From assembly GCA_944329425.1 (NCBI GenBank), contig CALVIG010000003.1:51460-115459 (forward strand): DNA of 64,000 nt, given 5' to 3'. The stretch's first letter is position 1. Each line of letters starts with the position of its first letter. Under the pieces are notes generated by a model, which was given only the letters and a program-made list of their open reading frames with translations, had not been told where the DNA came from and did not search any database. A program made the translations under genes and the position numbers. This document shows positions 24,508 through 58,309 of the stretch, in pieces. This DNA comes from an uncultured Bacilli bacterium (GTDB lineage: Bacteria > Bacillota_I > Bacilli_A > RF39 > UBA660).

Positions 24508-24508
24508 C

Positions 24509-37779: not shown

Positions 37780-37798
37780 TAAAGAAAGGTGAGGTTTT

Positions 37799-39729: not shown

Positions 39730-39827
39730 TTTCTTTTTTTAAATTATTAAAAATATAGAATGTTTCTTATTATCAACCTATTTTTAAATCCATATAATAT
39801 AAAAGAGAAATGATGGAGGTTATTTTT

Positions 39828-40724: not shown

Positions 40725-40867
40725 AATAAGAGTATTTAAGTGTAATAATATAAATAAAAATAATAATTTTAAATTTAAAAGTAGCAGATGTAACTAAGAC
40801 TTCAATAATTTCATAGTAAGTAGAAGTTCTTTATAACTAAAAAAATATGAATTAATATTTTCTGTAT

Positions 40868-41917: not shown

Positions 41918-41998
41918 GTTAAGAAACCTTTTGGGTTTCTTTTTTTGTTATCACCCAAATAGGTATTAATCATAAAATACTTTGAAGGAAGTGATAAT

Positions 41999-42055
41999 AT
42001 GGTTATAGTAGATGCTGGACATCAAAGGTGCTTTTTAACAAGGTATATAAAATAA
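41999..42055 (+). pseudogene. 5' fragment of a cwlC-type N-acetylmuramoyl-L-alanine amidase (Amidase_3) gene, interrupted after MVIVDAGH
   Basis: RBS GAAGGAAG followed by ATG. The encoded MVIVDAGH is the start of the IDAGHGGxDPGA catalytic motif. The frame runs into element DNA and stops after 18 codons. The 3' remainder is at 58005-58270. Confidence 0.6.
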
Positions 42056-42191
42056 AGAACCCGCTAGCTATAAGTCATTATACATAAAAGATAAATTAGT
42101 TGAAAAAATAGAGAAAATAGCAATTGAAAACAATACTTCATTCAATAATGTTATTATATCAATGATAGAAACATGCCTAAAACAAAAGTAA
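42051..42191 (+). pseudogene. Start-less remnant ORF with ribbon-helix-helix-like C-terminus at the left edge of the element
   Basis: Frame NKEPASYKSLYIKDKLVEKIEKIAIENNTSFNNVIISMIETCLKQK* has no usable start codon. A terminator hairpin follows at 42187-42220. Confidence 0.3.
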
Positions 42192-42428
42192 GACTCTTTA
42201 TAATTGATGTCTTACTTTTTAAATTTTAGAAATATTTATTAGTTTATCTACTAGTTTTTATAAACAGCATAAGATATTTTAAAATATATATTTTTTAAAG
42301 ATTGTTTTGTGATATTTTTATTATTTTTCTAATATAAAAATAACATTTACTTTTATATTAGAAAGATATATAATAACACCCAAAAAGGAGCAATGCGTTT
42401 AATTATAATTATATTGGTATAAAGTCTT

Positions 42429-42660
42429 AGATATTGAGTAGTACATCTAAACACTTTTACTTTTGCAGTAAATGTTTGTGGCATTGTAGTGGGTGTGCTA
42501 CTATGATTATAGAGTTTTATTTTTTTGATTTATTTTTTTATATAAATCTCGGATGCGTTTTTGTTAATAAAATCCCATCAGGGATTTTTTTTGTGCAATT
42601 TTATTTAGCACGAGCACCGCCTTTCTGTAAAAAAAAATTATTTTTACGGAAAGGAGTTTA
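42429..42660 (+). promoter_or_regulatory. Conserved leader upstream of sigma-like regulator copy A (paralogous to 54777-55011)
   Basis: About 85 nt are roughly 80% identical to copy B (AGATATTGAGTAGTACATCTAAACACTTTTACT ... GGGTGTGCTACTATG). This is followed by a terminator-like hairpin plus T-run (42570-42593), the shared CACCGCCTTTCT box and a second hairpin abutting the RBS. Confidence 0.4.
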
Positions 42661-42661
42661 A

Positions 42662-43147
42662 ATGAATATACCTAGGAGACGAAAAAGTAAGGATAATCCT
42701 TATACCTTAGGCGTTAATAATGAAGGTAAGTACTTAGTTTCATTTAAAAATGCTAATAATTATAAAGTGTGTATTGAAGTTAGTTATTTAATTTATAAAA
42801 CATTAAACGAATTTGAATTAAAAGATTTATCTCAGTTAAATGAATTTGATAGACATATAGAACATCTAGATTTAATGGAAAATGATGAAATTCTATATAA
42901 AAGAATTATAAAAAAAGAGTTATCTATTGAAGAAATAGTTAATATTAAAATTTCTAAAGAAAATTTAATTTATGCTATAAATAAACTTTCTATAAATCAA
43001 AAAACAAGAATAATGAAATACTATTTTGATGGTAAAACAGAAAGTGATATTGCTTTGGAAGAAAATGTGACACAGCAATCTGTTCATATAGGTTTAAAAC
43101 GAGCAATAAAAAAATTAAGAGAAATTTTAAAAAGTTTAGAAAAATAG
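42662..43147 (+). CDS. Sigma-70 region-4-like HTH regulator (small alternative-sigma/late-activator-like protein), copy A
   Basis: 161 aa. C-terminal MKYYFDGKTESDIALEENVTQQSVHIGLKRAIKKLREILK fits the sigma-70 region 4 HTH pattern. About 50% identical to the ORF at 55012-55491. Confidence 0.55.
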   Translation: MNIPRRRKSKDNPYTLGVNNEGKYLVSFKNANNYKVCIEVSYLIYKTLNEFELKDLSQLNEFDRHIEHLDLMENDEILYKRIIKKELSIEEIVNIKISKENLIYAINKLSINQKTRIMKYYFDGKTESDIALEENVTQQSVHIGLKRAIKKLREILKSLEK

Positions 43148-43180
43148 TCTGTTATTTTTCATTTTAGTGAGGAAATAGGT

Positions 43181-43245
43181 GAAGGGATATATATCCCTTT
43201 TGCCTATCTTTATTAATTAGGTATGATCTTTGACAACTTAATATT
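43181..43245 (+). promoter_or_regulatory. Conserved terminator hairpin plus TTGACA-containing 21-nt box downstream of sigma-like copy A
   Basis: Hairpin GAAGGGATATATATCCCTTT, then GATCTTTGACAACTTAATATT. The same arrangement, nearly identical, occurs at 55531-55611 after copy B. It lies about 80 nt upstream of the tail-collar gene. Confidence 0.4.
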
Positions 43246-43323
43246 ATTAATTTAAAAATGTCTAGTGAAATTCCAGTAGAAAAAATTTTATGATGAAGCT
43301 GTTAAAGAAAGGAGAATGATATT

Positions 43324-44466
43324 ATGAATTTAACAGAACAAACTGTAAGTGGAACCAATGAAGTTAGCTTACAAGATTCACTTAATGCTTCTTTATTGAA
43401 GTTAAAAGTGACAATGGGTGCAAATACAGTAGCACCAGAAGATACAGATTGTTTTATCTATGTAGATAAAGCGTCTAGTGCAAATCCTACGGAAGAAAAG
43501 AAAAGTTATCTTTTTGAACTTTCAGAACCATTAAGATATTGTAATGGAGTAGGAGATGAGTTATTACAAGAAATAAAAATTGTAAATAACGATGTTGTAA
43601 TGAAAACAACGGTAACAAGAAAGGTAGGAGTATCTGAAGATGGTACTTTAAGTGTTTTAGAAACACCTACAACAGAGGAGATTGATGCATATCCAGTTAC
43701 TTTATTTGAAGGAATTAATTATATTTATACTAATTATTCAAATGCGGATATTGAATTAATATATCCAAAAGATACTGATGAAAACAAAATGTTTTTAAAC
43801 AATGCCATTTATTGTAATCACAAGTTAAAAAATGATGGTGAATTTTCGCTTGATGATATTTACTTTAAAGACGCATTTACTAAAACAGAAGATAAATTAA
43901 ACCTAGAAGTAAATAATGCTTCAGTTGATTGTATTACTTCGAATAATAATAAATTTAGCTTAGATAGTGAAGGTAATTTAATTGTTAATTCAATTACTAC
44001 TGCGCAAGGGTCACAAGGCTCTTCATCTGATAATGAAACAATATGTAATTTGATATATCCAGTTGGTAGTATTTATATGTCTGTTAATAGTACTGATCCA
44101 ACAACTTTATTCGGCGGTACATGGGAACAGTTAAAAGATAGATTCCTACTTGGAGCTGGTGATTCCTATGGAAACGGAGCAACCGGTGGAGAAGCAAACC
44201 ATACATTAACTATTAATGAGATGCCAAGCCACACTCACACTCAAAATCCACATACACACAGTGTTAGAGCAAAAGGGTTTAATGGTACTTCGAACTTGAA
44301 TGGATATTATATGCTACGTAGAAATAGAAATGATGATAGCTATGATGATGTCGATCCAAATGCAGCTATGAGTGCAACAGCAACTAACCAAAATACTGGT
44401 GGAGGAGCAAGTCATAATAATATGCCACCATACTTAGTAGTATACATGTGGAAAAGGGTATCTTAA
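43324..44466 (+). CDS. Phage tail-collar (receptor-binding fibre tip) domain protein
   Basis: C-terminal PVGSIYMS...LFGGTWEQL...RFLLGAG...GGEANHTLTINEMPSHTHT...HNNMPPYLVVYMWKR is the tail-collar/MdpB-type domain. The N-terminal part is fibre-like. Confidence 0.6.
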   Translation: MNLTEQTVSGTNEVSLQDSLNASLLKLKVTMGANTVAPEDTDCFIYVDKASSANPTEEKKSYLFELSEPLRYCNGVGDELLQEIKIVNNDVVMKTTVTRKVGVSEDGTLSVLETPTTEEIDAYPVTLFEGINYIYTNYSNADIELIYPKDTDENKMFLNNAIYCNHKLKNDGEFSLDDIYFKDAFTKTEDKLNLEVNNASVDCITSNNNKFSLDSEGNLIVNSITTAQGSQGSSSDNETICNLIYPVGSIYMSVNSTDPTTLFGGTWEQLKDRFLLGAGDSYGNGATGGEANHTLTINEMPSHTHTQNPHTHSVRAKGFNGTSNLNGYYMLRRNRNDDSYDDVDPNAAMSATATNQNTGGGASHNNMPPYLVVYMWKRVS

Positions 44467-44855
44467 TGATAACCCTTCCCATTAAGGATCATTTAATTAT
44501 GCGAGCACTTAATAATTATTCTAATACTGTTTATGAACTTAATATTTTAAAAAGAAGATTAAATTTACTTGTAAATTATGAATCCGAAATTGCTTTGGAA
44601 AAAAATAGGTTAATAAATTTAATAGATAACGAACAACAGGTGATAAAGCAAATGGAAAATGATTTACAAAATTTATCTGGTATTGAAAATAAACTGTATT
44701 ATGAAATTGTTATTAATGGTACTAACGTAACAAAGGCAATAGATAAAGTAGCAACAAATGAATTTATTGATACTTCAACTTTATGGAAAAATTATTATCC
44801 TAAAGTAAAAAAAGAAATAGATAAATTATATCTACTATTATCTAAAGAAAATTAA
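44448..44855 (+). CDS. Hypothetical protein (possible fibre chaperone/accessory), translationally coupled
   Basis: Overlaps the 3' end of the previous gene. 135 aa. No recognisable family. Confidence 0.35.
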   Translation: MEKGILMITLPIKDHLIMRALNNYSNTVYELNILKRRLNLLVNYESEIALEKNRLINLIDNEQQVIKQMENDLQNLSGIENKLYYEIVINGTNVTKAIDKVATNEFIDTSTLWKNYYPKVKKEIDKLYLLLSKEN

Positions 44856-44875
44856 ATATAGAAAGGAGATTAGCA

Positions 44876-47800
44876 ATGAAAGAAATAGAGTTAATTGGAA
44901 AACGAAAAGCAAGAGAAAAACATTTCTTAAAAGAAAATGGAATAATAACAGCTAATGTCTATGATGAAGATATTCATTTTTTAAAAGATGGAAAATATGA
45001 AGAGATTGATAATACACTTATTGAGGAAAATGGCTATTTAGTAAATAAAAATAATGCGTATAAAGTTTCTTTTGCAAAGAAAAGTAAAGATGAACTAATG
45101 GAAATGAGTATAGGTAATAATTATATTAAAACAATGTTGGTTTATCAAAAAGAAGTGGATTTAAAAGAAAATATTACTCAGTCCAAACTTCACAAAAACG
45201 TATGTTATCCTAATATAATAGAAAATGTTGATTTAGAATATAATATTATGCCTGGAAAGGTAAAAGAAGCAATTATATTAAAAAATAAAAATGTTGATTT
45301 AGAAAAATTAGTTTTCATAATTGAAACAAACACAAAATTAGAATTAAAGGAAAATAAAAAAATTATTTCAACGGTAGACAATAATAATTGTTTCGAATTT
45401 GACGCACTTTATATGATAGATGCTAACTTTAAAACAAATAATAATATTAATTATAAATTAACTAAAAGAGATGATGATATATATCAACTTGAATTAATTG
45501 TTGACAAAGAATGGTTAAATAATGAAGAAACAAAATATCCAGTAATAATTGATCCAACAATAACAAATTCCGGTCAGAACAATAGTGTCTATGATACTTA
45601 TATTTATCCTGGTGATACTGGAGTTGATAGAAATAGTCAAGATATTTTAAAAGCAGGGGTTGAAAGAATTGATGGCGTTGATAGGGAAAATAGAACGTTA
45701 ATAAAATTTGATTTGCCTGTAATAGGTACCGGTAGTCAAGTAATAGGTGCCAATTTACAGTTATATGGTTATCCAAAAATACCTTCAGATAGTGAAACAG
45801 ATTTGTTGTTGGCTCATAGAATCACCACAAATTGGGATGAAAGTACTGCTACATGGGATAATATGAATGACAAATTTGATCCGTTGGTTGAAGGTTTAAT
45901 ATTTGTTGGAAGAGGATACTATGATTTTGAAAACGAAACTATTCATCCATTTAATTGTGGTGGTGATATTACTAGATTAGTGAGAAAATGGTACACAGGA
46001 ACGCCTAATTATGGTATTATGTTGAAACAAAATCTATTGAAGTATAATGCAAATATATTACCAGCATTTTATTCAAACAATAATAATTCTACTGGTATAA
46101 ATCCTAAGCCTGTATTATCTATATCATATAGAAATCAAAATGGAATAGAAAATTATATGAATTATCAGACAAAAGGTTTTTATGATGGCGAAGCATATGT
46201 CAATAACTATAATGGAAATTTGACCACAATATTTGATATTGGTTCAACAATAAGTGGAAAAATGCCAATTGGTTTAAATCTTATATATAATACAAATGAT
46301 GTTGTGTTAGAAAAAAATTATGGTTATGGATTAGGGTATAAATTAAATTTACACCAAACTATAAAAGAACAACTTATTGATTCTAAAACATATTTAGAGT
46401 ATTGTGATGAAGATGGTACTTTACATTATTTTTTAAATGAAAAAGCTATGTTTGATGAAAATGGTTATAATATCATTAATACACAAAACATTTATTATGA
46501 TGAAGATGGGTTGGATATGACTATAACAAAAAATAGTAATAGTTATGTGCTTAAAGATAAAAATGGAAATACTATGACATTTATTAAAAATGGTGATAAA
46601 GCATATTTAACTAAGATAGAAGATGTTAATGGTAATAAAAATACTATTGAATATAGTCCTGAGAATGCAATAGTAAAAATAATAGATGCTAATGATAATG
46701 AAATAAATTTAGAATATGGTGCAACTACAATAACTATAATAAGTCCAGAACAAACAGTTACTTTAAGTTATTTAAATAACCAAGTAGTCAGTATAAATAG
46801 TTTAACAGGAATAACTCAATTCGAATATAATGCAAATAATATTATATCTAAAATTATTGATATTGATGGTATGAAAACTACTTATGATTACTATGATCAA
46901 AAACCATACAAAGTAAAAAAAGTATCTGAATATGGTGCTGAAAATACTTTGGGAGAATATTTTGAGATGTTGTATGATTTTGATTCTACAACTATAGTAG
47001 ATTCAAAAGAAAACGCAAAAAATATTATATTTAATTCTCAAGGTAGTGTAGTATCAATTAGTGGTTTGAAGGATAAGGATGATATAAAAAATTCGTATGG
47101 GCTTAGCCAAATAAATGGCACATCTGGAATTACCATTAATAATGGAAACAATAATAAATTATTAAGAACAGAGATACCACTTAAATATGTTAAAAATTTA
47201 TTATCTAATACAAGTTTTGAAAAAAATGTAATTAATTTTACTAGTACAGAAGATGTTAATATGATTATAACTAATGAAACCTCGGAAACAGGTGCTAATA
47301 GTTTAAAAGCTACTAGTACAATTAATAATCAAGCATTAACACAAAGTATAGATGTAGAAAAAGGTGATTATTATACATTTAGTAGTTATATTAAAAATAC
47401 TGGTGATGTTAAATTAATTCTTAGTTACTTTGACAAGAATGGGATTATTATTCAATCTCAAAGTGAATTAATAAAGCCGAGTGATGTTTTTGAAAGATAT
47501 GATGTAACAATAAAGTATCCTGAAGATGCAACAAGTAATTTAACTTTAAAAATAATTTTAGAAGATGCTGGAACAGTATATGTTGATGATGTACAGTTGG
47601 AAACCGGTGAAGTTGCAAATAATTATAATTTATTAGAAAATTCAGATTTTTCTAATGGTTTCTCTGATTGGGAGGTTTCAGCTAGTGATAATTTAACAGG
47701 TGATTTATTATCTATAAATGATGTATTTGAAATTGTTTCTTTGCCAGACAATTTAAACGCACTTAAAATAAAAATGAATCCTGCTTATAATTATATTATG

Positions 47801-50800
47801 GAAAAAACATATAATATAAGTGGAAAAGGCGGAGATGTATTTAATCTTTCATTTTGGTATAAAAATGAAGGTGTAGATTCAGATTTATCAGAGTATTATG
47901 GAAGCAGACCATATATTATTTTTCATTATACAAATCAAGAAGATGGACATTGCATTATTCCTACACCGTTACTTAATATAAATGATCAATCATGGCAATA
48001 TGTTTCGAATGATTTTACTGCTGAAAAAGATTATAGTTCTATTACGATTAGTATTCAACATCAATATACTGCAAATGATTTTTATATTACAAATATGAGT
48101 TTATTTAAAGATATAAGAAATGTTTATTATGAGTATGATGAATTTGGAAATGTAATATTAGAAAAAAATTTAGATGATAATAGTAATAAATATAATTATG
48201 ATAAAGATAATAAATTGATTCAGATGACTAATCCAAAAGGCAAAAATTTTACTATTGAATATGATAATATTTTTAAAAATAGGACTATCAATGGTATGAC
48301 TGATATGGGGGTATCTAATCAATTAAAATATGACAATAATAATAATCCAATTATATCTAGGGTTCAAAAAAATAATATTATAGGTGATATAACAGATGGT
48401 TTATATAAAATAAGATTAAAGGGAAGCGATATATATTTAAGAAATATATCAAATGATATTAAATGTAAATTAGAAAACTGTAACCATGATATATGGAAAT
48501 TAGAAAAGATAGATGAATATGTTAAAATCCATCACTCTATTCTTACTGATAAATATTTTACTGTTCAGAATAATAATATTATTTTATCAAATGAAAATGG
48601 AGATAATTCACTATTTAAGTTGAAGAAAAATAAAAACGGAAGTTATTCTATAAAATTAAAACTAGAGGATAAATACTTAAAATATAATAATTCAGGAATA
48701 GAAATATCAACTTTGATAGATGAAGATTACAGTTTTGAATTTTATTTTGAAACTGTAGATTGTGATTTATTTATTGAAAATAAAGCGGAGTATACAGAAA
48801 ATGGTGCGTTTATAAGTCGAATAATTGATTCATTAAATCATTCTTATAATTATGAAATTGATCAGGAAAAAGGTTTGACTAAATCAGAAACAAACGAAAA
48901 AGGTATTAAAACTAATTATAATTATAATTCTAAAAAGAAACTTATTTCATCTATATGCAACGATAAAAGTGTATTTTATGAATATAATGATAAAAATTTG
49001 TTAAGTAAAGTTAAGCATGGTAAGAAAGAATATAATTTTATTTATGATGAATTTTCTAATGTTAAGACAATAAAAATGGGTAATAATATTAGGCTTATTA
49101 CATATAATTATGATACAAATGGAGATTTGATTTTATTAGATTATGGGAATGAAGGCTCTCTAAATTATGAGTATGACGAATTTTCTAGATTAAGTAAAAA
49201 AACTAAAGAAAATGATACCTATGAATATAAGTATAATGGAAGTGGAGATTTGGTAAAAATTTTATCAAATAATTACATAACTAAATATACTTATGATTTA
49301 GCTAAAAGATTGAGTAAATATAATTTTGATGATTTTATAATTAAATATAAATATGACTCAAATGAAAATATAACGAATATTAAGTATAGTTTGGGTAGCA
49401 TAAATAATGAAATAATAAATACTTTTAATGATGATGATTTGATAATTAATACGTCATTTTCAAATAAAAAAATAAATTATACCTATGATTTACTAGGTAG
49501 ATTAAAAAGTGAAAAAATAAACAATATATATGAAACAAGTTATGAATATATAGAGAATGGAAAAAATACTTCTACTCTATTGAAAAAGCTTAAAACAGGT
49601 AATAATATATATTCATACAAATATGATAAATTAAATAATTTAACGCATGTTTATTATAATGACGACTTATTAACTAAATATTATTATGATGACTATAATC
49701 AGCTTATAAAGGAAATCGATTTTGAAGATAAAAAAATTATAAAATATAAATATGATAATGTAGGTAATATGTTATACAAAAAAGTATATGCTTTGGATAC
49801 CTATGACTTTATTACCCAAGATATATATTATTACAATAATGATGATTGGCAAGATCAATTAACTTCGTTTAATAACACCGCTATTACTTATGATGAAATA
49901 GGGAATCCATTAACTATAGGTAATAATATTAATCTAAACTGGATTAATGGTAGAGAACTAGAAACTTATAATGATGGTACTAACCTAATTTCGTATAAAT
50001 ATAATTCTGAAGGTATAAGAATAAGTAAAAAGGTGAATAACACGGAAACGAAATATTATTTAGAGGATAATGATATAATATTTGAAAAGAGAGGAAATAA
50101 TGTGCTATACTATTTACGTAATGATATAGATGATTTGTTTGGATTTATGTATAATAACGATTTATATTATTATGTAAAAAATAATAAGAATGATATTGTA
50201 GGTATATTAGATAACAGTTATAATATAGTAGCTAAGTATAAATATGATTCTTGGGGAAAAGTAATTTCTATAACTGATAGTCAAGATAACGATATATCAA
50301 ATAATGTTAATAATATAGGAAATATAAATCCGTTTAGATATAGATCTTATTATTATGATTCAGAAACTAAATTATATTATTTAAATAGTAGATATTATAA
50401 TCCGGAATGGAAAAGATTTATTAATCCTGATTCTTATGCTGGACAAATTGGTGGAAATATATTACTTCACAATATATATATATATTCTTTAAATAATCCT
50501 ATTTTATATAGCGATGAAAGTGGTAATATAGTAGGATTAACATCAGTAGCTGCGGGTGTGTTATACGCTTTTGGAATTGCTGTATTTAAAGCTTCTGTGT
50601 ATGTAGCTGTTAGTGGTTTAGTTGTTGGGGGCTCTATTTATGTGGGAAAAGCCATATCCAATAATAAAAGTAAATCAAAATCAAAGACGAAAGCACAAAG
50701 TAAATCTAAAATAAAAACTGCTGTGGCTGCAAAAGCAAAAACTAGTACAAAAAAATATTCGAACAACAATAAGCCATGTACAGAAGCCTATTTTACAAAA

Positions 50801-51079
50801 GATATGAGAGATGTTGTACGTGGTGAAAGATTAACAATTGAAGAAACAATTGCAAAAGTTAATGCTAAGGGAAATGTTATGTGTGATAATTATTGGCCCG
50901 CTAAAGAAGTTGCTACTGCCATTTCTCCAAATCCAATATGTGAAATAAATAGCATTCAGCATAAAGGATATAAATATTACTATCACTTTCATCCAAATAG
51001 AGATACTTATAAGGATGTACATATATTCTTTGAAGGATTACCATTAGAATTTTTTGAAGGGAAGGGAAATTGTAGATGA
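44876..51079 (+). CDS. Rhs/YD-repeat polymorphic toxin (2067 aa): DNRLRE-like domain, CBM-like and ricin-B-like lectin modules, YD repeats, RHS core, variable C-terminal toxin domain
   Basis: RBS GAAAGGAGA. Dozens of YD-type repeats (e.g. YKYDSNENITNIKY, YTYDLLGRL). RHS core end motif FRYRSYYYDSETKLYYLNSRYYNPEWKRFINPD...NIYIYSLNNPILYSDESGN. N-terminal region with DNRLRE-like segment (DRENRTLIKFDL). No signal peptide. Confidence 0.85.
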   Translation: MKEIELIGKRKAREKHFLKENGIITANVYDEDIHFLKDGKYEEIDNTLIEENGYLVNKNNAYKVSFAKKSKDELMEMSIGNNYIKTMLVYQKEVDLKENITQSKLHKNVCYPNIIENVDLEYNIMPGKVKEAIILKNKNVDLEKLVFIIETNTKLELKENKKIISTVDNNNCFEFDALYMIDANFKTNNNINYKLTKRDDDIYQLELIVDKEWLNNEETKYPVIIDPTITNSGQNNSVYDTYIYPGDTGVDRNSQDILKAGVERIDGVDRENRTLIKFDLPVIGTGSQVIGANLQLYGYPKIPSDSETDLLLAHRITTNWDESTATWDNMNDKFDPLVEGLIFVGRGYYDFENETIHPFNCGGDITRLVRKWYTGTPNYGIMLKQNLLKYNANILPAFYSNNNNSTGINPKPVLSISYRNQNGIENYMNYQTKGFYDGEAYVNNYNGNLTTIFDIGSTISGKMPIGLNLIYNTNDVVLEKNYGYGLGYKLNLHQTIKEQLIDSKTYLEYCDEDGTLHYFLNEKAMFDENGYNIINTQNIYYDEDGLDMTITKNSNSYVLKDKNGNTMTFIKNGDKAYLTKIEDVNGNKNTIEYSPENAIVKIIDANDNEINLEYGATTITIISPEQTVTLSYLNNQVVSINSLTGITQFEYNANNIISKIIDIDGMKTTYDYYDQKPYKVKKVSEYGAENTLGEYFEMLYDFDSTTIVDSKENAKNIIFNSQGSVVSISGLKDKDDIKNSYGLSQINGTSGITINNGNNNKLLRTEIPLKYVKNLLSNTSFEKNVINFTSTEDVNMIITNETSETGANSLKATSTINNQALTQSIDVEKGDYYTFSSYIKNTGDVKLILSYFDKNGIIIQSQSELIKPSDVFERYDVTIKYPEDATSNLTLKIILEDAGTVYVDDVQLETGEVANNYNLLENSDFSNGFSDWEVSASDNLTGDLLSINDVFEIVSLPDNLNALKIKMNPAYNYIMEKTYNISGKGGDVFNLSFWYKNEGVDSDLSEYYGSRPYIIFHYTNQEDGHCIIPTPLLNINDQSWQYVSNDFTAEKDYSSITISIQHQYTANDFYITNMSLFKDIRNVYYEYDEFGNVILEKNLDDNSNKYNYDKDNKLIQMTNPKGKNFTIEYDNIFKNRTINGMTDMGVSNQLKYDNNNNPIISRVQKNNIIGDITDGLYKIRLKGSDIYLRNISNDIKCKLENCNHDIWKLEKIDEYVKIHHSILTDKYFTVQNNNIILSNENGDNSLFKLKKNKNGSYSIKLKLEDKYLKYNNSGIEISTLIDEDYSFEFYFETVDCDLFIENKAEYTENGAFISRIIDSLNHSYNYEIDQEKGLTKSETNEKGIKTNYNYNSKKKLISSICNDKSVFYEYNDKNLLSKVKHGKKEYNFIYDEFSNVKTIKMGNNIRLITYNYDTNGDLILLDYGNEGSLNYEYDEFSRLSKKTKENDTYEYKYNGSGDLVKILSNNYITKYTYDLAKRLSKYNFDDFIIKYKYDSNENITNIKYSLGSINNEIINTFNDDDLIINTSFSNKKINYTYDLLGRLKSEKINNIYETSYEYIENGKNTSTLLKKLKTGNNIYSYKYDKLNNLTHVYYNDDLLTKYYYDDYNQLIKEIDFEDKKIIKYKYDNVGNMLYKKVYALDTYDFITQDIYYYNNDDWQDQLTSFNNTAITYDEIGNPLTIGNNINLNWINGRELETYNDGTNLISYKYNSEGIRISKKVNNTETKYYLEDNDIIFEKRGNNVLYYLRNDIDDLFGFMYNNDLYYYVKNNKNDIVGILDNSYNIVAKYKYDSWGKVISITDSQDNDISNNVNNIGNINPFRYRSYYYDSETKLYYLNSRYYNPEWKRFINPDSYAGQIGGNILLHNIYIYSLNNPILYSDESGNIVGLTSVAAGVLYAFGIAVFKASVYVAVSGLVVGGSIYVGKAISNNKSKSKSKTKAQSKSKIKTAVAAKAKTSTKKYSNNNKPCTEAYFTKDMRDVVRGERLTIEETIAKVNAKGNVMCDNYWPAKEVATAISPNPICEINSIQHKGYKYYYHFHPNRDTYKDVHIFFEGLPLEFFEGKGNCR

Positions 51080-51804
51080 TAATAAGAGATAAAGTGACTG
51101 GTGATTTATATAAAAATTTAATGAATTATATTATTTCAAAAAGTGACGTTTTATCAGTATCAGTAAATCTTATTTATAATAAGAAAGTTACGGATAAATT
51201 TATGAAAATTATTACATATAATAATGAGTATGATATTAATAATATTCTAAATGATGTTCCTAAAAAACTAATAGAGGAAATTTCTGAGGAAAACAAGAAT
51301 AATACTTTAATTTTTGATGAAGAATATATAAATAATGAAAAAAGATATTTAATAAAATATATTCAAAATTTTTCAGAAGATGATAGGGTATCTCTCATAT
51401 ATAAAAGAAGAAAAACTTATATAAAAAATATGATTTATTGGCTAGTTTATGAATATAAAACAACTAATTGGTTACGTAAATTTAAAACTAGTATTATTTA
51501 TAAAAAGCGTAAAAATTCATCGTATACTACTTATTATCTCAATCTGACGAAGGATTTAATAGATGATATCCTTAGCAGAAATTCATTTGATGATTGGAAT
51601 TTTCCATTATCTGTTGAAGATATTGCATTTTTTAAGGATAAACAATGTTTATTATGTTCAGAAACTCATGAAAATATGTGGGATTTATATTGTAAAGATC
51701 AAAATGAATATAAGTATTTTAAATCTATTGGTATTAAATTTAATGATTTTAAATATAAATCAGAAGGAAAAAAAGGATTACCTTACAATAATTATTATAT
51801 TTAA
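51076..51804 (+). CDS. Putative cognate immunity protein of the Rhs C-terminal toxin
   Basis: Start overlaps the Rhs stop (ATGA). Cytoplasmic 242-aa protein with no homology recognised. The position is typical for Rhs immunity genes. Confidence 0.45.
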   Translation: MIIRDKVTGDLYKNLMNYIISKSDVLSVSVNLIYNKKVTDKFMKIITYNNEYDINNILNDVPKKLIEEISEENKNNTLIFDEEYINNEKRYLIKYIQNFSEDDRVSLIYKRRKTYIKNMIYWLVYEYKTTNWLRKFKTSIIYKKRKNSSYTTYYLNLTKDLIDDILSRNSFDDWNFPLSVEDIAFFKDKQCLLCSETHENMWDLYCKDQNEYKYFKSIGIKFNDFKYKSEGKKGLPYNNYYI

Positions 51805-51908
51805 TTAGATTTAGGTATTATTAATTTGAACTTTAACTCTAAAATTTGCAAAAGGCATTTTGATCGAGTTATCATTATGTCTTTTAATATTTTTCAAAAG
51901 GAAAAATT

Positions 51909-52208
51909 ATGATAAATTTTATAATAAATTATTGGATTGAGATATTATTGACGTCTATTACATCAGGAATTATATATATTTTTAAACAATATATGGGTTT
52001 AAAAAACGGAATGAAATCTCTTTTAAGAAATGAAATAATAAGAATATATGATAATCAAGAAAAATTAGGATATTGTCCTAGTTATATGAAAGAGAACATT
52101 AAAGAAATGTATGAAAACTACCATAAATTAGGTGGTAATGGAATGGTTACAAAAATGACTAATAAATTATATGAATTACCAAATGTAAAGGAGGATGATA
52201 AAGTATGA
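51909..52208 (+). CDS. BhlA/UviB-like holin-family protein (N-terminal transmembrane helix plus coiled region)
   Basis: 99 aa. Single N-terminal transmembrane segment. First gene of a three-gene overlapping cassette that ends in a lysin. Confidence 0.35.
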   Translation: MINFIINYWIEILLTSITSGIIYIFKQYMGLKNGMKSLLRNEIIRIYDNQEKLGYCPSYMKENIKEMYENYHKLGGNGMVTKMTNKLYELPNVKEDDKV

Positions 52209-52432
52209 AAGAAAAATTGATTTTATCTATTATTAATTTACTTAAAGTAAAATCAATAATAACGCTACTTACATTTGTAGCGTTCTTTTATTTATCTATT
52301 TCAGAAAAAATAGGTAGCGATAATTTTATGCTGATTATAGGAATGATTGCGACTTATTTCTTTAATAAAGATAATTCTGAAAAATTAAAAAATAAATCTA
52401 TGGAAGTGGTAAAAGATGAGCAAGATAACTAA
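52205..52432 (+). CDS. Small two-transmembrane holin-like protein
   Basis: 75 aa. Two hydrophobic helices and a charged C-terminus (KDEQDN). It overlaps both neighbours (ATGA-type coupling). Confidence 0.45.
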   Translation: MKEKLILSIINLLKVKSIITLLTFVAFFYLSISEKIGSDNFMLIIGMIATYFFNKDNSEKLKNKSMEVVKDEQDN

Positions 52433-53153
52433 CTTAATATTTAAAAATGCTAATCATTATGTAACATCTGGCTTTGGTAATAGAAAAGTAATGAATACCA
52501 AAGGAGGCTATACAAGTTCTTTTCATAATGGAACAGATTATGGGACAAATAATGTTAAATTACCACAATATGCTATTGAAAATGGAACTGTATTAAGTTG
52601 TGGTACGGATTCTTTAGGAGGAAAATTTGTTTGGGTTAAATATCCTAGAATAAATGTTAAAATGCTTCATTATCATTTATCTAGTGTTAATTGTAAAACT
52701 AATCAAATAGTATCTAAGGGAACACTTTTAGGATATACTGGTATGAGTGGTAAGGCAACAGGTATTCATTTGCATTTGTCTATTGTTGATCTATCTAATG
52801 GAGAGTTTTTGAATCCTGAGACGTATTCTTATACTGAACAAAGTGAAACATCTGTGCCTGTAATTAATAATTCATTTTTTGGTAATAAATCATATTTTAA
52901 GCGTGGTGATTCATGTGACAATATAGGTAAAGTATGTTATTTTTTTGCAGACTATTTTTATGGATATTTTTGTAAAACTAAAGAGGAGGCTCATAAGTTA
53001 TTAGATGGTAATCTATTTGGACCATATCTTGAGAAATGGGTAAAAGAGTTTCAAGAAAGAGCTAAAGCAGAGGGAAGGTATTATGATAACATTGATGGCT
53101 ACATTGGACCTAAAACTTTAAAAACTTTAGAAAGCTATGGGTTTATTTATTGA
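52416..53153 (+). CDS. M23-family peptidoglycan endopeptidase with C-terminal PG_binding_1 domain (endolysin-like)
   Basis: HNGTDYG ... GMSGKATGIHLHLSI (HxxxD/HxH zinc motifs of LytM/M23). C-terminal ...YYDNIDGYIGPKTLKTLESYGF is the peptidoglycan-binding repeat. No signal peptide. Confidence 0.75.
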   Translation: MSKITNLIFKNANHYVTSGFGNRKVMNTKGGYTSSFHNGTDYGTNNVKLPQYAIENGTVLSCGTDSLGGKFVWVKYPRINVKMLHYHLSSVNCKTNQIVSKGTLLGYTGMSGKATGIHLHLSIVDLSNGEFLNPETYSYTEQSETSVPVINNSFFGNKSYFKRGDSCDNIGKVCYFFADYFYGYFCKTKEEAHKLLDGNLFGPYLEKWVKEFQERAKAEGRYYDNIDGYIGPKTLKTLESYGFIY

Positions 53154-53284
53154 TTAATAAAGGGGTACAAATTATTATTTTGTATCCTTTTAAAATATTC
53201 ATATTTACTAAAATAATTAAATATGATAATATAAACTTATAAAATGTGTTGATTAGCAGTAAATAATATTTATTAGGAGAAATC

Positions 53285-54058
53285 ATGACAAAGAGATTAA
53301 AACTATTTATAATAATTACTGTATTATTAATTATAATAATATTTATTTTCAGATTATTTCCTTTTGGATATAATCAATATAAAATTAGCTTGGATTTAAG
53401 TAAAATTACTTTGCCTAAATTTTCATATGATATTAAACAGGAACAAAAAGGTATAATAACTTTTAAATCACATAGAAGTAAATTTATAATTCAAGATGAA
53501 ATAAATGATATGTTTGAATCTTATGATAAATATATTTGTAATAACAAAGTGTATTATTATGATAAAAATCATAATATAACATTTATGGATTATGAAATCT
53601 CAAATAGATTTTTTACTAATAATATTAAATTAATATATCATAGTGGTAAATTTAGTGATAATGAATGTGCAAAAGTATTTGATTATAAACAAATGGATTA
53701 CAGAATTATCCCGGTTAATAGCACAGGTCATTGTTATATTAAAGAAGATAAGTTTGAATATAGAGATGAAAATAATGAATTACATAATGTGTATTATGAA
53801 TGTTTTGGTAATTTAGCATTTAAAAATGGAATGAATAAAATGGAATATATTGATAGAGTTTTATTTTTTAGATGGATTTCTATGAAGGACATAATTAATT
53901 ATTTAAATTATAAAACAAAAGATAAAACTTTTATGAAAAAAATAATAGATAAAAAACATACGTTATATTATAATAATGATTTTTATTTGTTGAAGTGTAA
54001 TAATAAAAATATATATATAGGTGAAAAGTATGATGAATTTAAAAGTTATTGTAATTAA
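53285..54058 (+). CDS. Hypothetical protein with N-terminal transmembrane anchor
   Basis: ORF with RBS AGGAGA. Extremely AT-rich. No family recognised. Confidence 0.35.
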   Translation: MTKRLKLFIIITVLLIIIIFIFRLFPFGYNQYKISLDLSKITLPKFSYDIKQEQKGIITFKSHRSKFIIQDEINDMFESYDKYICNNKVYYYDKNHNITFMDYEISNRFFTNNIKLIYHSGKFSDNECAKVFDYKQMDYRIIPVNSTGHCYIKEDKFEYRDENNELHNVYYECFGNLAFKNGMNKMEYIDRVLFFRWISMKDIINYLNYKTKDKTFMKKIIDKKHTLYYNNDFYLLKCNNKNIYIGEKYDEFKSYCN

Positions 54059-54412
54059 AAATAAATTTGATATAAAATAATCAAATTTATTTTTCTATGC
54101 ACCTATAACAAATTTCAGAAATAGAAAAGTTATATCTTTTTGAAAGTAAGTAAAGTCTTTCTAATTAAATAATGACTTTACCATACTCTATTCCACTTAA
54201 CATACTTTTTTGAATATTTAGTATTATTGCTAATTTTTTTAACTTAGATTTTAAGTTTTTCTTATTCTTAAAATATTTTTAGGAATGATTTTTAAATTCA
54301 ACTCTGTAATATTATAAATTCTTTTAGAATCATTTTTAATAAATTAACAACAGAAGAGAGAAAAATTATATATTGGATTTATTTGGACAATAAATGAAAG
54401 AAGGAAAACAAA

Positions 54413-54613
54413 ATGAGAAAAGACTCTTTAAATAGTGTGGCATCAGCAGTAAAAGAGTTCAAAAAATATATAAAAGAGAATGAAAATAATATTGATAAAT
54501 CGAAAAAAATTATATTAAGGCAGGCTCTAAAAGCAGCGCGCTCTATTATAAGCTCTAATAGAACATATTTTAATAGCCAAGAGTTAAGAGAATTATTTAA
54601 TGATAATGATTAA
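54413..54613 (+). CDS. Hypothetical small protein
   Basis: 66-aa ORF with RBS GAAGGAAAA. Confidence 0.3.
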   Translation: MRKDSLNSVASAVKEFKKYIKENENNIDKSKKIILRQALKAARSIISSNRTYFNSQELRELFNDND

Positions 54614-54776
54614 AAGTAAAATTATATTTCATTTTTTAAAAACATTAAAATAGTAAAGTTTTAAATCATGTTTTTATTAGTTTTATATTATAAAAATCTC
54701 ATTTACTTTTCTGATGTAAAAGTATATAATAGCACTTAAAAAAAAGCAGTGCTTATTATAAAGTATAAGCGATTTT

Positions 54777-55011
54777 AGATATTTGAGTAGTACATCTATA
54801 AACTTTTACTAGTGCAGTAGTTTAGTAGCATTGCTATTAGGGTGTGCTACTATGTATGAAAAGATATTTAATAGTCAATATTTTATTTTTAATGCCGTAT
54901 GGGGCTTGTTCGTTCAAGTCCCGTGCGGCATTTTTTTTATACCTGTTTTTATTATGTTTAAAATTCGTTCACCGCCTTTTCTATTGAATAACTCAATAGA
55001 AAGGAAGGTAA
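54777..55011 (+). promoter_or_regulatory. Conserved leader upstream of sigma-like regulator copy B (paralogous to 42429-42660)
   Basis: Same conserved 5' block, internal hairpin plus T-run (54894-54938), CACCGCCTTTCT box and RBS-proximal hairpin CTTTCTATTGAATAACTCAATAGAAAG. Confidence 0.4.
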
Positions 55012-55491
55012 ATGAATAATCCAAAAAGACGCAAAAGTAAAGATAATCCATATACTTTAATTTATAATTCACAAGATGATAAATATATTATTTCTTTTAA
55101 TGATTCTAGTAACCATAAAATTATTTTTGAAATAGATCGTTCTTTATATATGTTATTTAATGAATTTGAATTAGAAGACTTATCAGAGTTAAATGAATTT
55201 GATAGACATATAGAGCATCTTAATATAATGGAGAGTGATGAGATTCTATATAAAAGAACCCTGAAAAAGAGTTTATTAGTAGATGACATTGTTGATAAAA
55301 AATTAGAAATGGAAACATTGAGAGAAGCTATAAATGAACTTCCAATGACGCAGAAAAGGAGATTAAAAAAGTACTATTTTGAAAATAAAACGCTGGAAGA
55401 TATAGCAAAAGATGAACATTGCTCAAAAGTGGCTGTTAAATATAGCATTGATTGTGCAATTAGTAATTTAAGAAAAAAATTAAAAAGTTAA
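55012..55491 (+). CDS. Sigma-70 region-4-like HTH regulator, copy B
   Basis: 159 aa. Paralogue of 42662-43147 (shared KSKDNPYTL, LNEFDRHIEHL, KYYF...K..S blocks). Confidence 0.55.
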   Translation: MNNPKRRKSKDNPYTLIYNSQDDKYIISFNDSSNHKIIFEIDRSLYMLFNEFELEDLSELNEFDRHIEHLNIMESDEILYKRTLKKSLLVDDIVDKKLEMETLREAINELPMTQKRRLKKYYFENKTLEDIAKDEHCSKVAVKYSIDCAISNLRKKLKS

Positions 55492-55530
55492 ATTTTTAGG
55501 CTTAACTTTTAGGCTAGAAGTGAGGAAATA

Positions 55531-55611
55531 GATGGAAGGGTAAAATATCCTTTCCATCTGTTTTTGATTTTAATAACAAAACACAGAAGTTGATCTTTGA
55601 CAACTTAATAT
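55531..55611 (+). promoter_or_regulatory. Conserved terminator hairpin plus TTGACA box downstream of sigma-like copy B
   Basis: GATGGAAGGGTAAAATATCCTTTCCATC hairpin, then GATCTTTGACAACTTAATATT (identical 21-mer to copy A). Confidence 0.4.
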
Positions 55612-55880
55612 TTATTCATCAGATACGTTCTTATTGTTCTGGAGCACGTTAACAAGTACGCTTGTCGGTAAATACTTGGTTATAAAACTAGATGGCAACT
55701 AGTATTGCGAAGATAAATAATAAGGTTAAAGATACTTCTGTTCAGCCATAGACTCAATCATTGGGAGCAGTCCGGAGTGATCCTCGGGAGAGTGAAAATC
55801 TCATGGAATTAGTTAGCCACTAATCGTCTGGTGAATGTTAAAAGTACTTGTTTATATTAAAATGGAAGGGAATTTATTAA

Positions 55881-56081
55881 ATGAAAAAGTATAAAGTAAA
55901 AATAAAATTAATATTTGAGACTACTATGTATCATTCACAGACGAGTTTGAAAAAGACTAAAGAAGACATTAATAGGGTTATAACACATTATTTAAAGGGT
56001 AAAAAACTTAATATTTTAAATTTATTTAATACTACACCGCGAATTATTTGTAAGGTGGAAAAAGATGATAGAAAACAATGA
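55881..56081 (+). CDS. Hypothetical small basic protein
   Basis: 66-aa ORF with RBS GGAAGGGAA. Upstream of the recombinase. Confidence 0.25.
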   Translation: MKKYKVKIKLIFETTMYHSQTSLKKTKEDINRVITHYLKGKKLNILNLFNTTPRIICKVEKDDRKQ

Positions 56082-56373
56082 TATTAATTAGTAAAAAAAT
56101 ATTATGATTAAAAAGTTTTGCATACATATAAATAGGAGGAAGATAATGTGAATGAAGTTGAATATAATGTTAATGTTTTTGTAAATAAAAATGGTTATAA
56201 TTCAAAAGATAAGAAAATAATTGAAAAAAAATTTAATCAAAAATTATTAAAGATAATTATTTCTATAGAAAAAAATAAAGTTTGTCAAGTTTAAAAAAAT
56301 AAAAAAAGTATAATTTATATTTTTAAAAATTTATTTTAGTATTAATTTGCAAGAAAGGAGGGTGCTTTCTATA

Positions 56374-57984
56374 ATGAAGAATAGAGTTGATATATATACA
56401 AGACTTTCCGATGAAGACAGATATAAAAAAAATAAAAGTGATGATAGTGAATCTATAGCTAACCAGAAAAGCATGTTATTAAAATATGCGTTAGAGCAGG
56501 GCTGGGAAGTAATAAATGTTTATAGTGATGATGATTATTCCGGTGCTGATAGTAATAGACCACAATTTCAAAAACTTTTAAAGGATTGTGAAAATGGCGT
56601 TGTTGATATAGTGCTTTGCAAAACCCAGAGTAGGTTTTCTCGTGATATGGAAGTCGTTGAAAGGTATATACATAATAAATTTATTGAATGGGGAGTACGC
56701 TTCGTTAGTATTGTTGATAATGCAGATACTGCAAATAAAGGCAATAAAAAATCTAGGCAAATTAATGGCCTTGTAAACGAATGGTATTTAGAAGATTTAT
56801 CAGATAATATTAGAAATTCATTGCAAAACAGAAGAGAAGATGGTTTATTTTTAGGATCTTTCGCTCCATATGGTTACATTAAGGATCCGGATAACAAAAA
56901 CAAGTTATTAATTGATCCCATTGCTGCTGAAATAGTAAGAGAAATATTTAACTTGTATAAATCCGGAGTTGGTTATTATAATATTGCCACAACTTTAAAT
57001 AAAAGAGGCGTTTTAACACCTTCTAATTATAAAAAAGAAAATGGTAGTAAATATGTATGCGGGAAAGCACGATTTAAAGAGAAAACAAAATGGTCTCAAG
57101 ATACGATTGCTAAAATATTAAGAAATGAAGTTTATATAGGTAATTTAGTGCAAGGAGTAAAAACTTATGTAAGTTATAAAAATCATAAATCTTATATTAA
57201 GCCTAAAAATGAATGGACTTATTCTTATGGTACACACGAACCTATAATAGATATGGAAACGTGGAATATGGTTCAATCTAAATTTAGATCTAGGACAAGA
57301 GTTAGTAGAACAACAGGTGAAGTATATTTGTTAAGTAAGAAGATTTATTGTAAAGAATGTGGTGGTGTATTTAATAGACAAATTTATCACACAAAAGACG
57401 GAAAAGTTCCATATATGAAATGTAAGGGAGTAAAGCTAGCTAATCGTGATTGTTCTAATAGGGAATCAATAAGATGTGAAAAAGTTGAAAAAATAATATT
57501 AGATGAATTGAATAAACAATTAGACTTATATTATAATGTTGATGAATTAGAAAGGTTATATGTTTTGCAAAAAAAATCTTTGAATAGTAGTACTTTATTA
57601 AAGAAAGAAACTTTAAATAATGAAAAACAAATATTACAGGAAAAAGTCGATAAAAAAAATGAACATTATAAAGCTTTATATGAAGATAAATTGGAGGGAA
57701 TAATTACGCAAGAAGACTTTATAATGTTTAGAGAAAAATTTTTAAATGAAATTGAAGAATATAAAAATAGAATCAAAATTATTGACGAGGAATTGAAATC
57801 GTTAAAATCGGAAGAAGAAAATGTTGAATCGAGCAGAGAAGTTTTTGAAAAATATAGACATATTAATAAACTTACAAAAGAAATTGTTGATGAATTTGTT
57901 GATGTTGTTAAAATAGGTAAAATAAATAAAGAAGATAATAGTAGAGATATAGATATTCATTTGAATATCATTAATTTAGATTAA
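56374..57984 (+). CDS. Large serine recombinase (resolvase/invertase N-terminal catalytic domain, recombinase domain, zinc ribbon, coiled-coil)
   Basis: N-terminal VDIYTRLSDEDR...IANQKSML (catalytic Ser region), YSGADSNRPQFQKLL, a C-terminal Cys cluster (CKECGG...CKG...C) and a long coiled-coil. The ATG at 56374 with RBS AGGAGGG is the preferred start. The stop lies 20 bp from the att core. Confidence 0.85.
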   Translation: MKNRVDIYTRLSDEDRYKKNKSDDSESIANQKSMLLKYALEQGWEVINVYSDDDYSGADSNRPQFQKLLKDCENGVVDIVLCKTQSRFSRDMEVVERYIHNKFIEWGVRFVSIVDNADTANKGNKKSRQINGLVNEWYLEDLSDNIRNSLQNRREDGLFLGSFAPYGYIKDPDNKNKLLIDPIAAEIVREIFNLYKSGVGYYNIATTLNKRGVLTPSNYKKENGSKYVCGKARFKEKTKWSQDTIAKILRNEVYIGNLVQGVKTYVSYKNHKSYIKPKNEWTYSYGTHEPIIDMETWNMVQSKFRSRTRVSRTTGEVYLLSKKIYCKECGGVFNRQIYHTKDGKVPYMKCKGVKLANRDCSNRESIRCEKVEKIILDELNKQLDLYYNVDELERLYVLQKKSLNSSTLLKKETLNNEKQILQEKVDKKNEHYKALYEDKLEGIITQEDFIMFREKFLNEIEEYKNRIKIIDEELKSLKSEEENVESSREVFEKYRHINKLTKEIVDEFVDVVKIGKINKEDNSRDIDIHLNIINLD

Positions 57985-58004
57985 TTACCTTGCTAACACG
58001 TATC

Positions 58005-58270
58005 CTGGACATGGAGGATCTGATCCAGGCGCATCAAATGGTGATATTATTGAAAAAGATTATACTTTAAAAATATCTAATTACATGTATGATAGGTTTA
58101 AAGATTTGGGTATACCGGTGGTTATAACTAGAACAACGGATAAAACTCTTAATCCAACAGACAGGGTAAATGTTATTAAACCCAACATAACTAGTAAAGA
58201 TGATATAGTTATTTCTAATCACTTAAATGCCGGAGGTGGCGAAGGTCAAAGTGTAACAATAAATGTATAA
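58005..58270 (+). pseudogene. 3' fragment of the cwlC-type Amidase_3 gene (start-less), resuming at ...PGHGGSDPGASNGD
   Basis: The frame is open from the element junction with no start codon. It contains GHGGSDPGA, VITRTTD, and HLNAGGG (the H.NAGGG zinc-ligand region), then stops prematurely shortly after. Confidence 0.6.
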
Positions 58271-58309
58271 CAATTAAAGCCTAAATATAGAAAGAAATGA
58301 GGAAATGTT

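Follow-up and report, generated by a model that had tools for sequence, protein, structure and literature searches.

Several sporulation genes are known to be split by mobile elements: sigK by skin, spsM by SPbeta, spoVFB by vfbin, gerE by gin and yabG by yin (PMC4191935, PMC5595907, PMC10747680). Here we describe a window of 64,000 nucleotides (the whole stretch of DNA analysed; contig CALVIG010000003.1 of an uncultured Bacilli bacterium, positions 51,460 to 115,459) in which a large serine recombinase (LSR) element, element 1, lies inside an Amidase_3 gene and carries the gene of an Rhs toxin among genes of phage type. Like skin, SPbeta, vfbin, gin and yin, it is an LSR element in the coding sequence of a putative mother-cell gene, with a short att core, phage-like cargo and a junction at which removal would be precise to the frame. 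Unlike in the skin-type elements, the target is a hydrolase of the Amidase_3 plus LysM type with two recurrent sites used by two recombinase lineages, both sites being occupied in the window, and neither a sporulation-controlled recombinase nor a directionality factor was found. An amidase was not among the split sporulation genes in the literature searched, and it would be a new target, with two recurrent sites, for the short list of such genes.

The cargo has its own set of relatives. The Clostridioides difficile pathogenicity locus (PaLoc), with TcdR, the holin TcdE and the endolysin remnant TcdL, likewise places a large toxin without a signal peptide beside regulator, holin-type and endolysin-type genes of phage origin. 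Unlike in the PaLoc, the toxin here is of the polymorphic Rhs kind and is paired with an immunity gene, which makes bacteria rather than host cells the likely targets; the regulators have sigma region 4 only, the M23 lysin is intact and not a remnant, and a tail-collar fibre gene belongs to the unit. The layout is also similar to that of Shiga-toxin prophages, where the toxin gene sits in the late operon between a late regulator of the terminator-leader kind and the holin and endolysin genes, and the toxin is released with lysis; unlike in those prophages, the cassette does not lie within a complete prophage, and its regulator is of the sigma-region-4 type instead of a Q-type antiterminator. 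The Tc toxin of Yersinia entomophaga is reported to leave by type 10 secretion, the holin/endolysin/spanin lysis of a specialised subpopulation (PMC10847048). The two systems share an Rhs-type toxin complex beside a phage lysis cassette that releases it, and the Yersinia system differs in being Gram-negative, in using a spanin, in making an ABC-type Tc complex directed against insects and in having no fibre or immunity gene. With WapA and other Gram-positive Rhs proteins, the toxin of element 1 shares the YD-repeat shell, the DNRLRE-type N-terminal domain, the variable C-terminal toxin and the adjacent immunity gene. WapA proteins carry a Sec signal peptide and are anchored to the wall (PMC12704120), whereas the family in the window is without a signal peptide and linked to lysin genes and genes in holin position.

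No description of an Rhs toxin linked to a lysis cassette in Gram-positive bacteria was found in the literature searched. The Gram-positive Rhs toxins described so far leave the cell by Sec or type VII secretion, and for a 240-kDa Rhs protein without an export signal the conserved link with holin-position and lysin genes suggests a directly testable route. If that route is real, lysis-dependent secretion would reach beyond the clostridial toxins aimed at host cells and the Tc toxins of Gram-negative bacteria, and would take in toxins that common gut bacteria use against other bacteria. The interpretation that we favour, with a probability of about 0.6, is that an LSR element has entered an amidase gene with a sigmaK-type promoter and carries a self-contained, phage-derived cassette for the release of an Rhs toxin, where release would come by lysis and the nature of the target gene would point to excision in the mother cell.

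Element 1 in the amidase gene

Element 1 spans positions 42023-58012 on the forward strand (15,990 bp) and lies after codon 8 of the amidase gene. From its ATG at 41999, the gene encodes MVIVDAGH (piece 1, codons 1-8, 41999-42022, +, ending in the attL core), then runs into unrelated sequence and meets a stop in frame at 42053-42055. At the other boundary, a start-less frame from 58003 reads ...YPGHGGSDPGASNGD... (also written …YPGHGGSDPGASNGDIIEKDY…) and supplies piece 2 (codons 9-86, GGSDPGAS...NAGGGEG, 58013-58246, +). The 8-bp core CTGGACAT stands at 42015-42022 (attL, +, within piece 1) and again at 58005-58012 (attR, +), and nowhere else in the window on either strand; the 8-mer as such is not rare, at least two copies being found in 13 of 100 shuffles. 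The placement and the length of 15,990 bp are proven because a metagenome contig, L003, carries the empty site joined at the core. This contig is 97-98% identical to the window and syntenic with it (rplM-rpsI, Abi_2, HtrA-like, CmpB, collagen-like, NUDIX, amidase, TnpV), and in BLAST alignments its positions 1442-6841 correspond to window 36685-42022 and its positions 6831-7479 to window 58002-58649, with an overlap of 11 bp. The amidase frame rejoined across the junction matches contiguous homologues with up to 99% identity (P0001). The original prediction, made from the sequence of the window, had drawn the same picture: an element of about 16 kb in an amidase gene cut after MVIVDAGH, a start-less frame at the far boundary, the 8-bp core at both ends and a serine recombinase gene ending 20 bp from the right core, with a search for an intact homologue as its check. 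All of this held, and the empty site now fixes the position of the core. The insert had also been called much more AT-rich than its surroundings; with a GC content of 24.7% in element 1 and 29.3% in the chromosomal flank, the gap is modest.

The ends allowed both parental sites to be reconstructed, attB as AGATGCTGG-ACAT-GGAGGATCT (junction stretch …GTAGATGCTGGACATGGAGGATCT…) and attP as TACCTTGCTAA-N12-ACAT-N12-TTAACAAGGTA (junction stretch …GTATCCTGGACATCAAAGGTGC…), in which each arm lies 12 nucleotides from the central ACAT. Both show dyad symmetry, as serine-integrase sites should. The empty site and the symmetric att sites show element 1 to be an integrative mobile element, the product of a large serine recombinase acting within the amidase gene. 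Just inside attL, at about 42085-42195, there is a start-less open reading frame (ORF) fragment resembling the end of a ribbon-helix-helix protein (…IKDKLVEKIEKIAIENNTSFNNVIISMIETCLKQK); across the attP junction of the circular form, no gene was found other than this fragment, which is not extended by joining the ends.

Recombinase 1 is encoded at 56374-57984 (+) and has the Resolvase (PF00239), Recombinase (PF07508), Zn_ribbon_recom (PF13408) and DUF4368 domains. Its true start is the ATG at 56374, giving 536 residues and not the longer ORF of 545, and its stop codon lies 20 bp before the right core. The nearest relatives of solved structure, all remote, are TnpX, SprA and the TP901-1 integrase. 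Three other Amidase_3 genes have a recombinase 72-74% identical to it at about 25 bp from their GHGG codons, and the element-side arms are conserved there; the gene in L102 is otherwise intact, the one in L104 is also split at the second site described below, and the one in L100 is a different paralogue. Judged by these insertions, recombinase 1 is predicted to recognise the DNA encoding the GHGG catalytic motif of Amidase_3 genes. Together with recombinase 2, described below, it represents two new serine recombinase families whose att sites are defined and lie where a conserved protein motif is encoded.

The cargo of L100, L102 and L104 differs from locus to locus. L100 and the window have in common a backbone made up of a sigma-region-4 regulator, a small ORF, PemK (its gene lost in the window) and the recombinase; in L104, PemK and the recombinase are retained and no regulator was called. 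In the window, a pemK RNA motif (Rfam RF02913, 57.1 bits against a gathering score of 34.8) at 55726-55806 (+) is followed by an ORF of 66 residues at the antitoxin position (55881-56081, +), with no PemK toxin gene after it. The PemK gene was not found anywhere in the window, and the PemIK module is thus incomplete, consisting of the pemK RNA and the 66-residue ORF. The stretch 55726-56300 looks like a degraded form of the module that L100 and L104 retain with PemK.

The rejoined amidase of the window has 93 residues, matching the 174-position Amidase_3 profile over positions 1-80. Its intact orthologues have 400-510 residues, with Amidase_3 followed by 4-6 LysM repeats and without a signal peptide; a scan of a genome collection with the amidase alignment gave relatives of up to 60% identity among the matches listed. 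Upstream of the split gene lies a sigmaK-type promoter motif, ACCCAAATAGGTATTAATCATAAAATA (41953-41979, +), whose pattern is conserved in the orthologues. The published sigmaK consensus, which the pattern matches, has AC at -35 and CATA… at -10, the -10 element being common to sigmaE and the -35 element different (PMC3789822). The pattern AC-N16/17-CATAnnnTA occurs 41-48 nucleotides before the start codon in 47 of 62 distinct upstream regions of orthologues, and at that distance before none of 952 other ORFs of at least 150 residues from the same loci. The upstream regions bearing it come from at least 19 lineages and have diverged in their spacers, and the promoter is retained before split alleles too. 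Ten matches to the pattern occur in the window, and only the one at 41953-41979 directly precedes a gene start. Since the sigmaK-type promoter is conserved, the amidase is best taken as a late mother-cell gene, in keeping with the B. subtilis hydrolases of mother-cell lysis, cwlC and cwlH, which belong to the late sigmaK/GerE class (PMC517825). The evidence, at the level of motifs but strong, points to a late mother-cell wall hydrolase resembling CwlC, in a gut Firmicute that forms spores, and the label "cwlC-type" given earlier to the gene is apt in function, in view of the Amidase_3 and LysM domains, the lack of a signal peptide and the promoter. In related loci, spoIIGA-sigE-sigG in L191 and a cwlD-like gene 3' of rplM-rpsI in L092 both support sporulation; among the housekeeping genes of the window no sporulation genes were found. 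Upstream of the amidase, a protein with collagen-like repeats and a beta-helix is encoded at 39810-40724, in a synteny kept in L001 and L003; it may be a spore-surface protein, and no sigmaK-type motif was seen before its gene.

The Rhs toxin cassette

The central gene of the cargo (44876-51079, +) encodes an Rhs polymorphic toxin of 2067 residues without a signal peptide. It comprises a DNRLRE domain, YD repeats, a CBM_4_9 domain, a weak ricin-type match, the Rhs core, a hydrophobic and Lys-rich linker and a C-terminal domain of 109 residues, and it matches RHS_repeat, TIGR03696 and TIGR01643 as well as, weakly, a phage head-spike-fibre domain. More than 100 clusters of homologues, with 2030-2110 residues and 44-82% identity, vary only in the last 9% or so; homologues with another C-terminal domain cover 91% of the protein, and the alternating toxin domains include Ntox44, AHH and Tox-REase-7. 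Every Rhs N-terminus inspected was without a signal peptide. The C-terminal domain of the window protein gave a confident model, with a predicted local distance difference test (pLDDT) score of 85, and has no relative of solved fold. The gene after it (51076-51804, +) encodes a candidate immunity protein of 242 residues, homologous to ORFs that follow Rhs genes with a like C-terminal domain. In L191 and in L187, where the immunity-like ORF is present in five tandem copies, both the toxin domain and the following ORFs are homologous to those of the window; in L189 the toxin domain is different, and so is the following ORF. Because both families change together, the C-terminal domain and the next ORF can be read as a toxin-immunity pair.

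The Rhs gene is preceded by two others that recur with it. The tail-collar fibre-like protein (43324-44466, +) has the Gp10_C domain at residues 241-379, and such a gene stands upstream of Rhs in L187, L189 and L191 as well. A small helper protein (44466-44855, +; about 129 residues from ATG, or 135 from the GTG at 44448) has a homologue at the same position in L189, not in L191, and found no family match in profile searches. Beyond the immunity gene, the layout is that of a lysis cassette, with genes for small membrane proteins directly before that of a peptidoglycan hydrolase without signal peptide. A 99-residue protein with one N-terminal transmembrane segment occupies the holin position (51909-52208, +; phrog_4105) and is 60-87% identical to its counterparts in L189 and L191, and a holin candidate of 75 residues follows (52205-52432, +; phrog_13256), hydrophobic at about residues 5-34 and with a possible second segment. 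PHROG families 4105 and 13256 are both without an assigned function. The endolysin-type hydrolase itself (52416-53153, +) is of the M23 type, as in L189, and the corresponding gene in L191 encodes CW_7 and LysM domains; the type of hydrolase is swapped and its position is constant. A protein of 257 residues with an N-terminal hydrophobic segment is encoded at 53285-54058 (+). The earlier reading of the cargo as a tail-collar fibre, a 2067-residue Rhs toxin without signal peptide with its immunity ORF, and an M23 lysin agrees with these domain matches; the profile searches it had proposed returned the RHS core, Peptidase_M23 and Sigma70_r4, and no holin family. Of its BhlA/BhlB-like holin pair, the position survives and the homology does not, as neither protein has a Pfam match.

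Two paralogous regulators, as foreseen, are encoded in element 1. Regulator 1 (161 residues, 42662-43147, +; Sigma70_r4_2, phrog_11138) belongs to the cassette and has homologues at the same position in L189 and L191, and regulator 2 (159 residues, 55012-55491, +) belongs to the backbone and has a homologue before the PemK and recombinase genes of L100. They are 53% identical, and match Sigma70_r4 or r4_2 only, at about residues 100-155. The nearest phage family, PHROG 11138, has no assigned function. As sigma region 2 was not detected in either with Pfam and NCBIfam, they are not counted among the sigma factors of the TcdR/UviA family (group 5: TcdR, UviA, BotR); the likening of the locus to the PaLoc is plausible for the conserved unit of Rhs, immunity, holin-position, lysin and regulator genes, and not for the family of the regulator. 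Each regulator gene follows a promoter and a structured leader. That of regulator 1 (42346-42661, +) has the promoter TTTACT-17-TATAAT and a terminator hairpin with U-run at 42569-42596, and the second copy, before regulator 2 (54702-55011, +), has its terminator at 54891-54940. The leader, of about 280 nucleotides, folds into a 12-bp stem, a long terminator hairpin with U-run and a hairpin sequestering the ribosome-binding site, and these structures are backed by compensatory changes across five sequences. It also precedes the regulator gene of L189 (about 7420-7693). The leaders fell into no known Rfam family, even at a relaxed threshold, and this conserved leader is a candidate for a new cis-regulatory RNA. 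After each regulator gene comes a terminator and a block, GATCTTTGACAACTTAATA, found in L189 too, which may be the target promoter of the regulators. If it is, regulator 1 would act on the fibre, Rhs and lysis genes, and regulator 2 on the antitoxin and recombinase genes. A sigmaK-like motif at 42250-42276, before regulator 1, hinted at control of the cassette in the mother cell but was treated as a chance match, since the corresponding positions in L189, L191, L100 and before regulator 2 do not have it.

The same set of genes recurs elsewhere. In L189/L190 (Rhs 58% identical), a regulator of 162 residues, a Gp10_C protein of 396, a protein of 128, Rhs, DUF5412, proteins of 99 and 78 residues and an M23 hydrolase lie between cysS/CmpB and clpP/gap/pgk. 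In L191-L193 (Rhs 48%), a regulator of 161 residues, a Gp10_C protein of 199, Rhs, proteins of 251, 101 and 76 residues and a CW_7 plus LysM hydrolase lie among other housekeeping genes. Neither of these loci has a recombinase. L187 (Rhs 64%) has Gp10_C, Rhs and then ORFs including the five tandem immunity-like paralogues. The genes for regulator, fibre, Rhs, immunity protein, holin-position proteins and lysin thus form a conserved unit, fitting a locus for toxin release. A phage contig, L194, has Dit, Tal, three Gp10_C proteins and, just upstream of an ORF of 75 residues and an endolysin with GH25, CW_7 and LysM domains, a homologue of the 99-residue protein that is 69% identical to that of the window; it has no Rhs gene. 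Judging from this gene order, L194 likely represents the ancestral type, and the cassette would derive from the end of a siphophage late operon, the genes for Rhs and the immunity protein having been inserted between those for fibre and holin. Rhs genes of the family are also seen in phage genomes: in L195, an IMG/VR contig, at 897-11272 and adjoining the large terminase gene, and in L098 (PV036447), an Anaeroplasmataceae phage, where a small ORF follows. Scans of viral contigs with single proteins gave no match for the regulator and one distant match for the recombinase. Two unannotated scaffolds with Rhs matches, MT835902 and MT836326, are apparently more GC-rich and were not taken as element 1.

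In the proposed mechanism, the leader would hold the regulator off until it is relieved, whereupon the regulator would turn on the operon of fibre, Rhs, immunity, holin and lysin genes. Holin and lysin would then lyse or permeabilise the producing cell and free the cytoplasmic toxin, and the lectin-like domains of the toxin, possibly with the fibre protein too, would direct it to neighbouring bacteria.

A second break in the same gene

The amidase gene is interrupted a second time at codon 86, after NAGGGEG (about 58246), where another LSR element begins and extends beyond the window. Element 2 occupies 58247-64000 (+) and continues in the overlapping contigs L084-L087 (L084, 5930-14825). Within the window it encodes TnpV (58310-58660), a fused N6-adenine and C5-cytosine methyltransferase (59369-61474) and ORFs of 99, 291 and 164 residues, and beyond it DUF6119, HTH_36 and recombinase 2, again a large serine recombinase, with 527 residues. 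Two ORFs of element 2 with no assigned family may be a restriction component, which would make the cargo a restriction-modification system; PADLOC recognised only the methyltransferase. The two recombinases are about 31-34% identical and represent separate lineages. Since element 2 splits the gene too, the removal of element 1 alone would not repair the amidase, so that the likening of element 1 to skin keeps the LSR element in a putative mother-cell gene and the in-frame junction, and loses the restored gene, which excision would leave split at codon 86.

When the C-terminal half of the amidase catalytic domain served as query, 80 loci were obtained, and in about 22 of them the gene begins exactly at the boundary between GG(E/T/D)G and AEVIYALRN. 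At these loci the 3' ORF, of 303-363 residues, is intact and is preceded on the same strand by a recombinase 48-62% identical to recombinase 2. L140, L135 and L109 contain small elements in full, together with both halves of the amidase. No full-length protein occurs among the 120 closest N-terminal homologues (64-99% identity); they stop at site 2, with the single exception of a partial sequence of 127 residues that continues as amidase. The tails of the homologues truncated at site 2 are few, recurrent and derived from elements. Intact and split alleles are found within one species. At both break points, insertions recur in many gut Firmicutes. The cargo at site 2 consists mostly of defence genes, and the site between NAGGG and AEV appears as a hub of defence islands in many of these bacteria (L088-L095, L104, L109, L117, L122, L135, L140), with type III restriction-modification, radical SAM, Fic, MazG-like, Schlafen-like helicase and nSTAND/Mrr genes and a large unidentified ORF, and at times with extra genes between the recombinase and attR.

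Competing explanations and minor features

The original prediction had gone further and seen in the locus a union of the skin and PaLoc ideas, an Rhs-toxin export locus on a developmentally excisable element. That union looks incidental, because the Rhs cassette occurs elsewhere without the recombinase and related recombinases carry quite different cargo; the presence of the cassette with recombinase 1 looks like a case of cargo capture. As to the element, recombinase 1 with a directionality factor could cut it out precisely, and it is the nature of the target gene that suggests excision specific to the mother cell. A real possibility, although we consider it short of probable, is that the amidase is a tolerated landing site, dispensable or redundant, from which elements excise only for their own transfer and which is not rebuilt in development. 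Elements of two recombinase lineages, and probably others, have gathered in the one gene, with intact and split alleles in one species and a cargo chiefly of defence systems typical of genomic islands; no sporulation-type promoter precedes the recombinase genes, and the hydrolases of mother-cell lysis in B. subtilis, cwlC and cwlH, are redundant (PMC517825). Against this possibility, every split piece seen keeps its open frame and catalytic residues, the sigmaK-type promoter is kept before split alleles, and none of the 120 closest homologues is full length though they have diverged to 64% identity. Moreover, the well-studied serine-recombinase elements in mother-cell genes all excise during sporulation (PMC4191935, PMC5595907, PMC10747680). 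Turning to the cargo, it could be the decaying end of a prophage with a moron toxin, with fibre, holin and lysin as leftovers and Rhs leaving by another way or upon unrelated lysis. The gene order is indeed that of the end of a siphophage late operon, Rhs proteins of the family occur inside phage genomes, and L187 pairs Rhs and fibre genes with no holin or lysin called. We nevertheless find this explanation unlikely, as the minimal set recurs without other phage genes at two further chromosomal sites while Rhs identity has fallen to 48-58%, no ORF is broken, a hydrolase of another type has taken over the same position and no Rhs member inspected has a signal peptide. A last alternative, in which a phage satellite mounts fibre and Rhs on the tail or head of a helper phage and delivers them with the particle, draws on the tail-collar domain of the fibre, whose homologues are tail proteins, on the weak match of Rhs to the phage head-spike-fibre domain and on the Rhs homologues adjoining a terminase gene in L195. 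Neither element 1 nor the chromosomal cassettes have a capsid, terminase, tube, sheath or baseplate gene, and an immunity gene with polymorphic C-terminal domains marks interbacterial toxins, so that we regard this alternative as very improbable.

The favoured interpretation, an LSR element in a sigmaK-type amidase gene with a cassette for Rhs release, has several points standing against it. Only three genomic contexts of the Rhs family were inspected (L189/L190, L191-L193 and L187), and in L187 no regulator, holin or lysin was called despite the fibre gene. The 99-residue and 75-residue proteins match no Pfam family (E <= 0.01) and no curated holin family. The model of the regulator has a pLDDT of 56, with beta strands of low confidence in its N-terminal part, so that the protein may be a sigma factor or an activator. 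For element 1 no directionality factor was found, and no motif of the sigmaE or sigmaK type was found within 260 nucleotides upstream of 4 site-1 and 12 site-2 recombinase genes. Finally, the stretch of 175-347 bp between the second recombinase gene and the contig ends did not yield the 3' part of the amidase; in other genomes, 1-4 kb of extra cargo separates a gene of the recombinase-2 type from this part. A broader reading, which we offer tentatively and think doubtful, would make the cassette a distinct and widespread route by which spore-forming gut Firmicutes free Rhs toxins without a signal peptide through programmed lysis, possibly at mother-cell lysis, when the producer is dying in any case, with the fibre protein as targeting adaptor, and the amidase a developmental split gene not recognised before whose two docking sites serve as a hub of defence and toxin genes. 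It is a coincidence worth recording that element 1 disables an amidase of putative mother-cell lysis and yet brings holin-position genes, a lysin and a toxin of its own.

Elsewhere in the window, an IS3-family insertion sequence lies at 35246-36684 (rve and HTH_Tnp_1 ORFs, minus strand) and is absent from L003, 97-99% identical there. Between a tmRNA gene at 20262-20625 and a tRNA gene at 30061-30131 lie about 9 kb of genes that look accessory, encoding an AAA protein, an ABC exporter, GNAT, nitroreductase and UvdE; the stretch 20262-30131 may be another island, at the tmRNA site.

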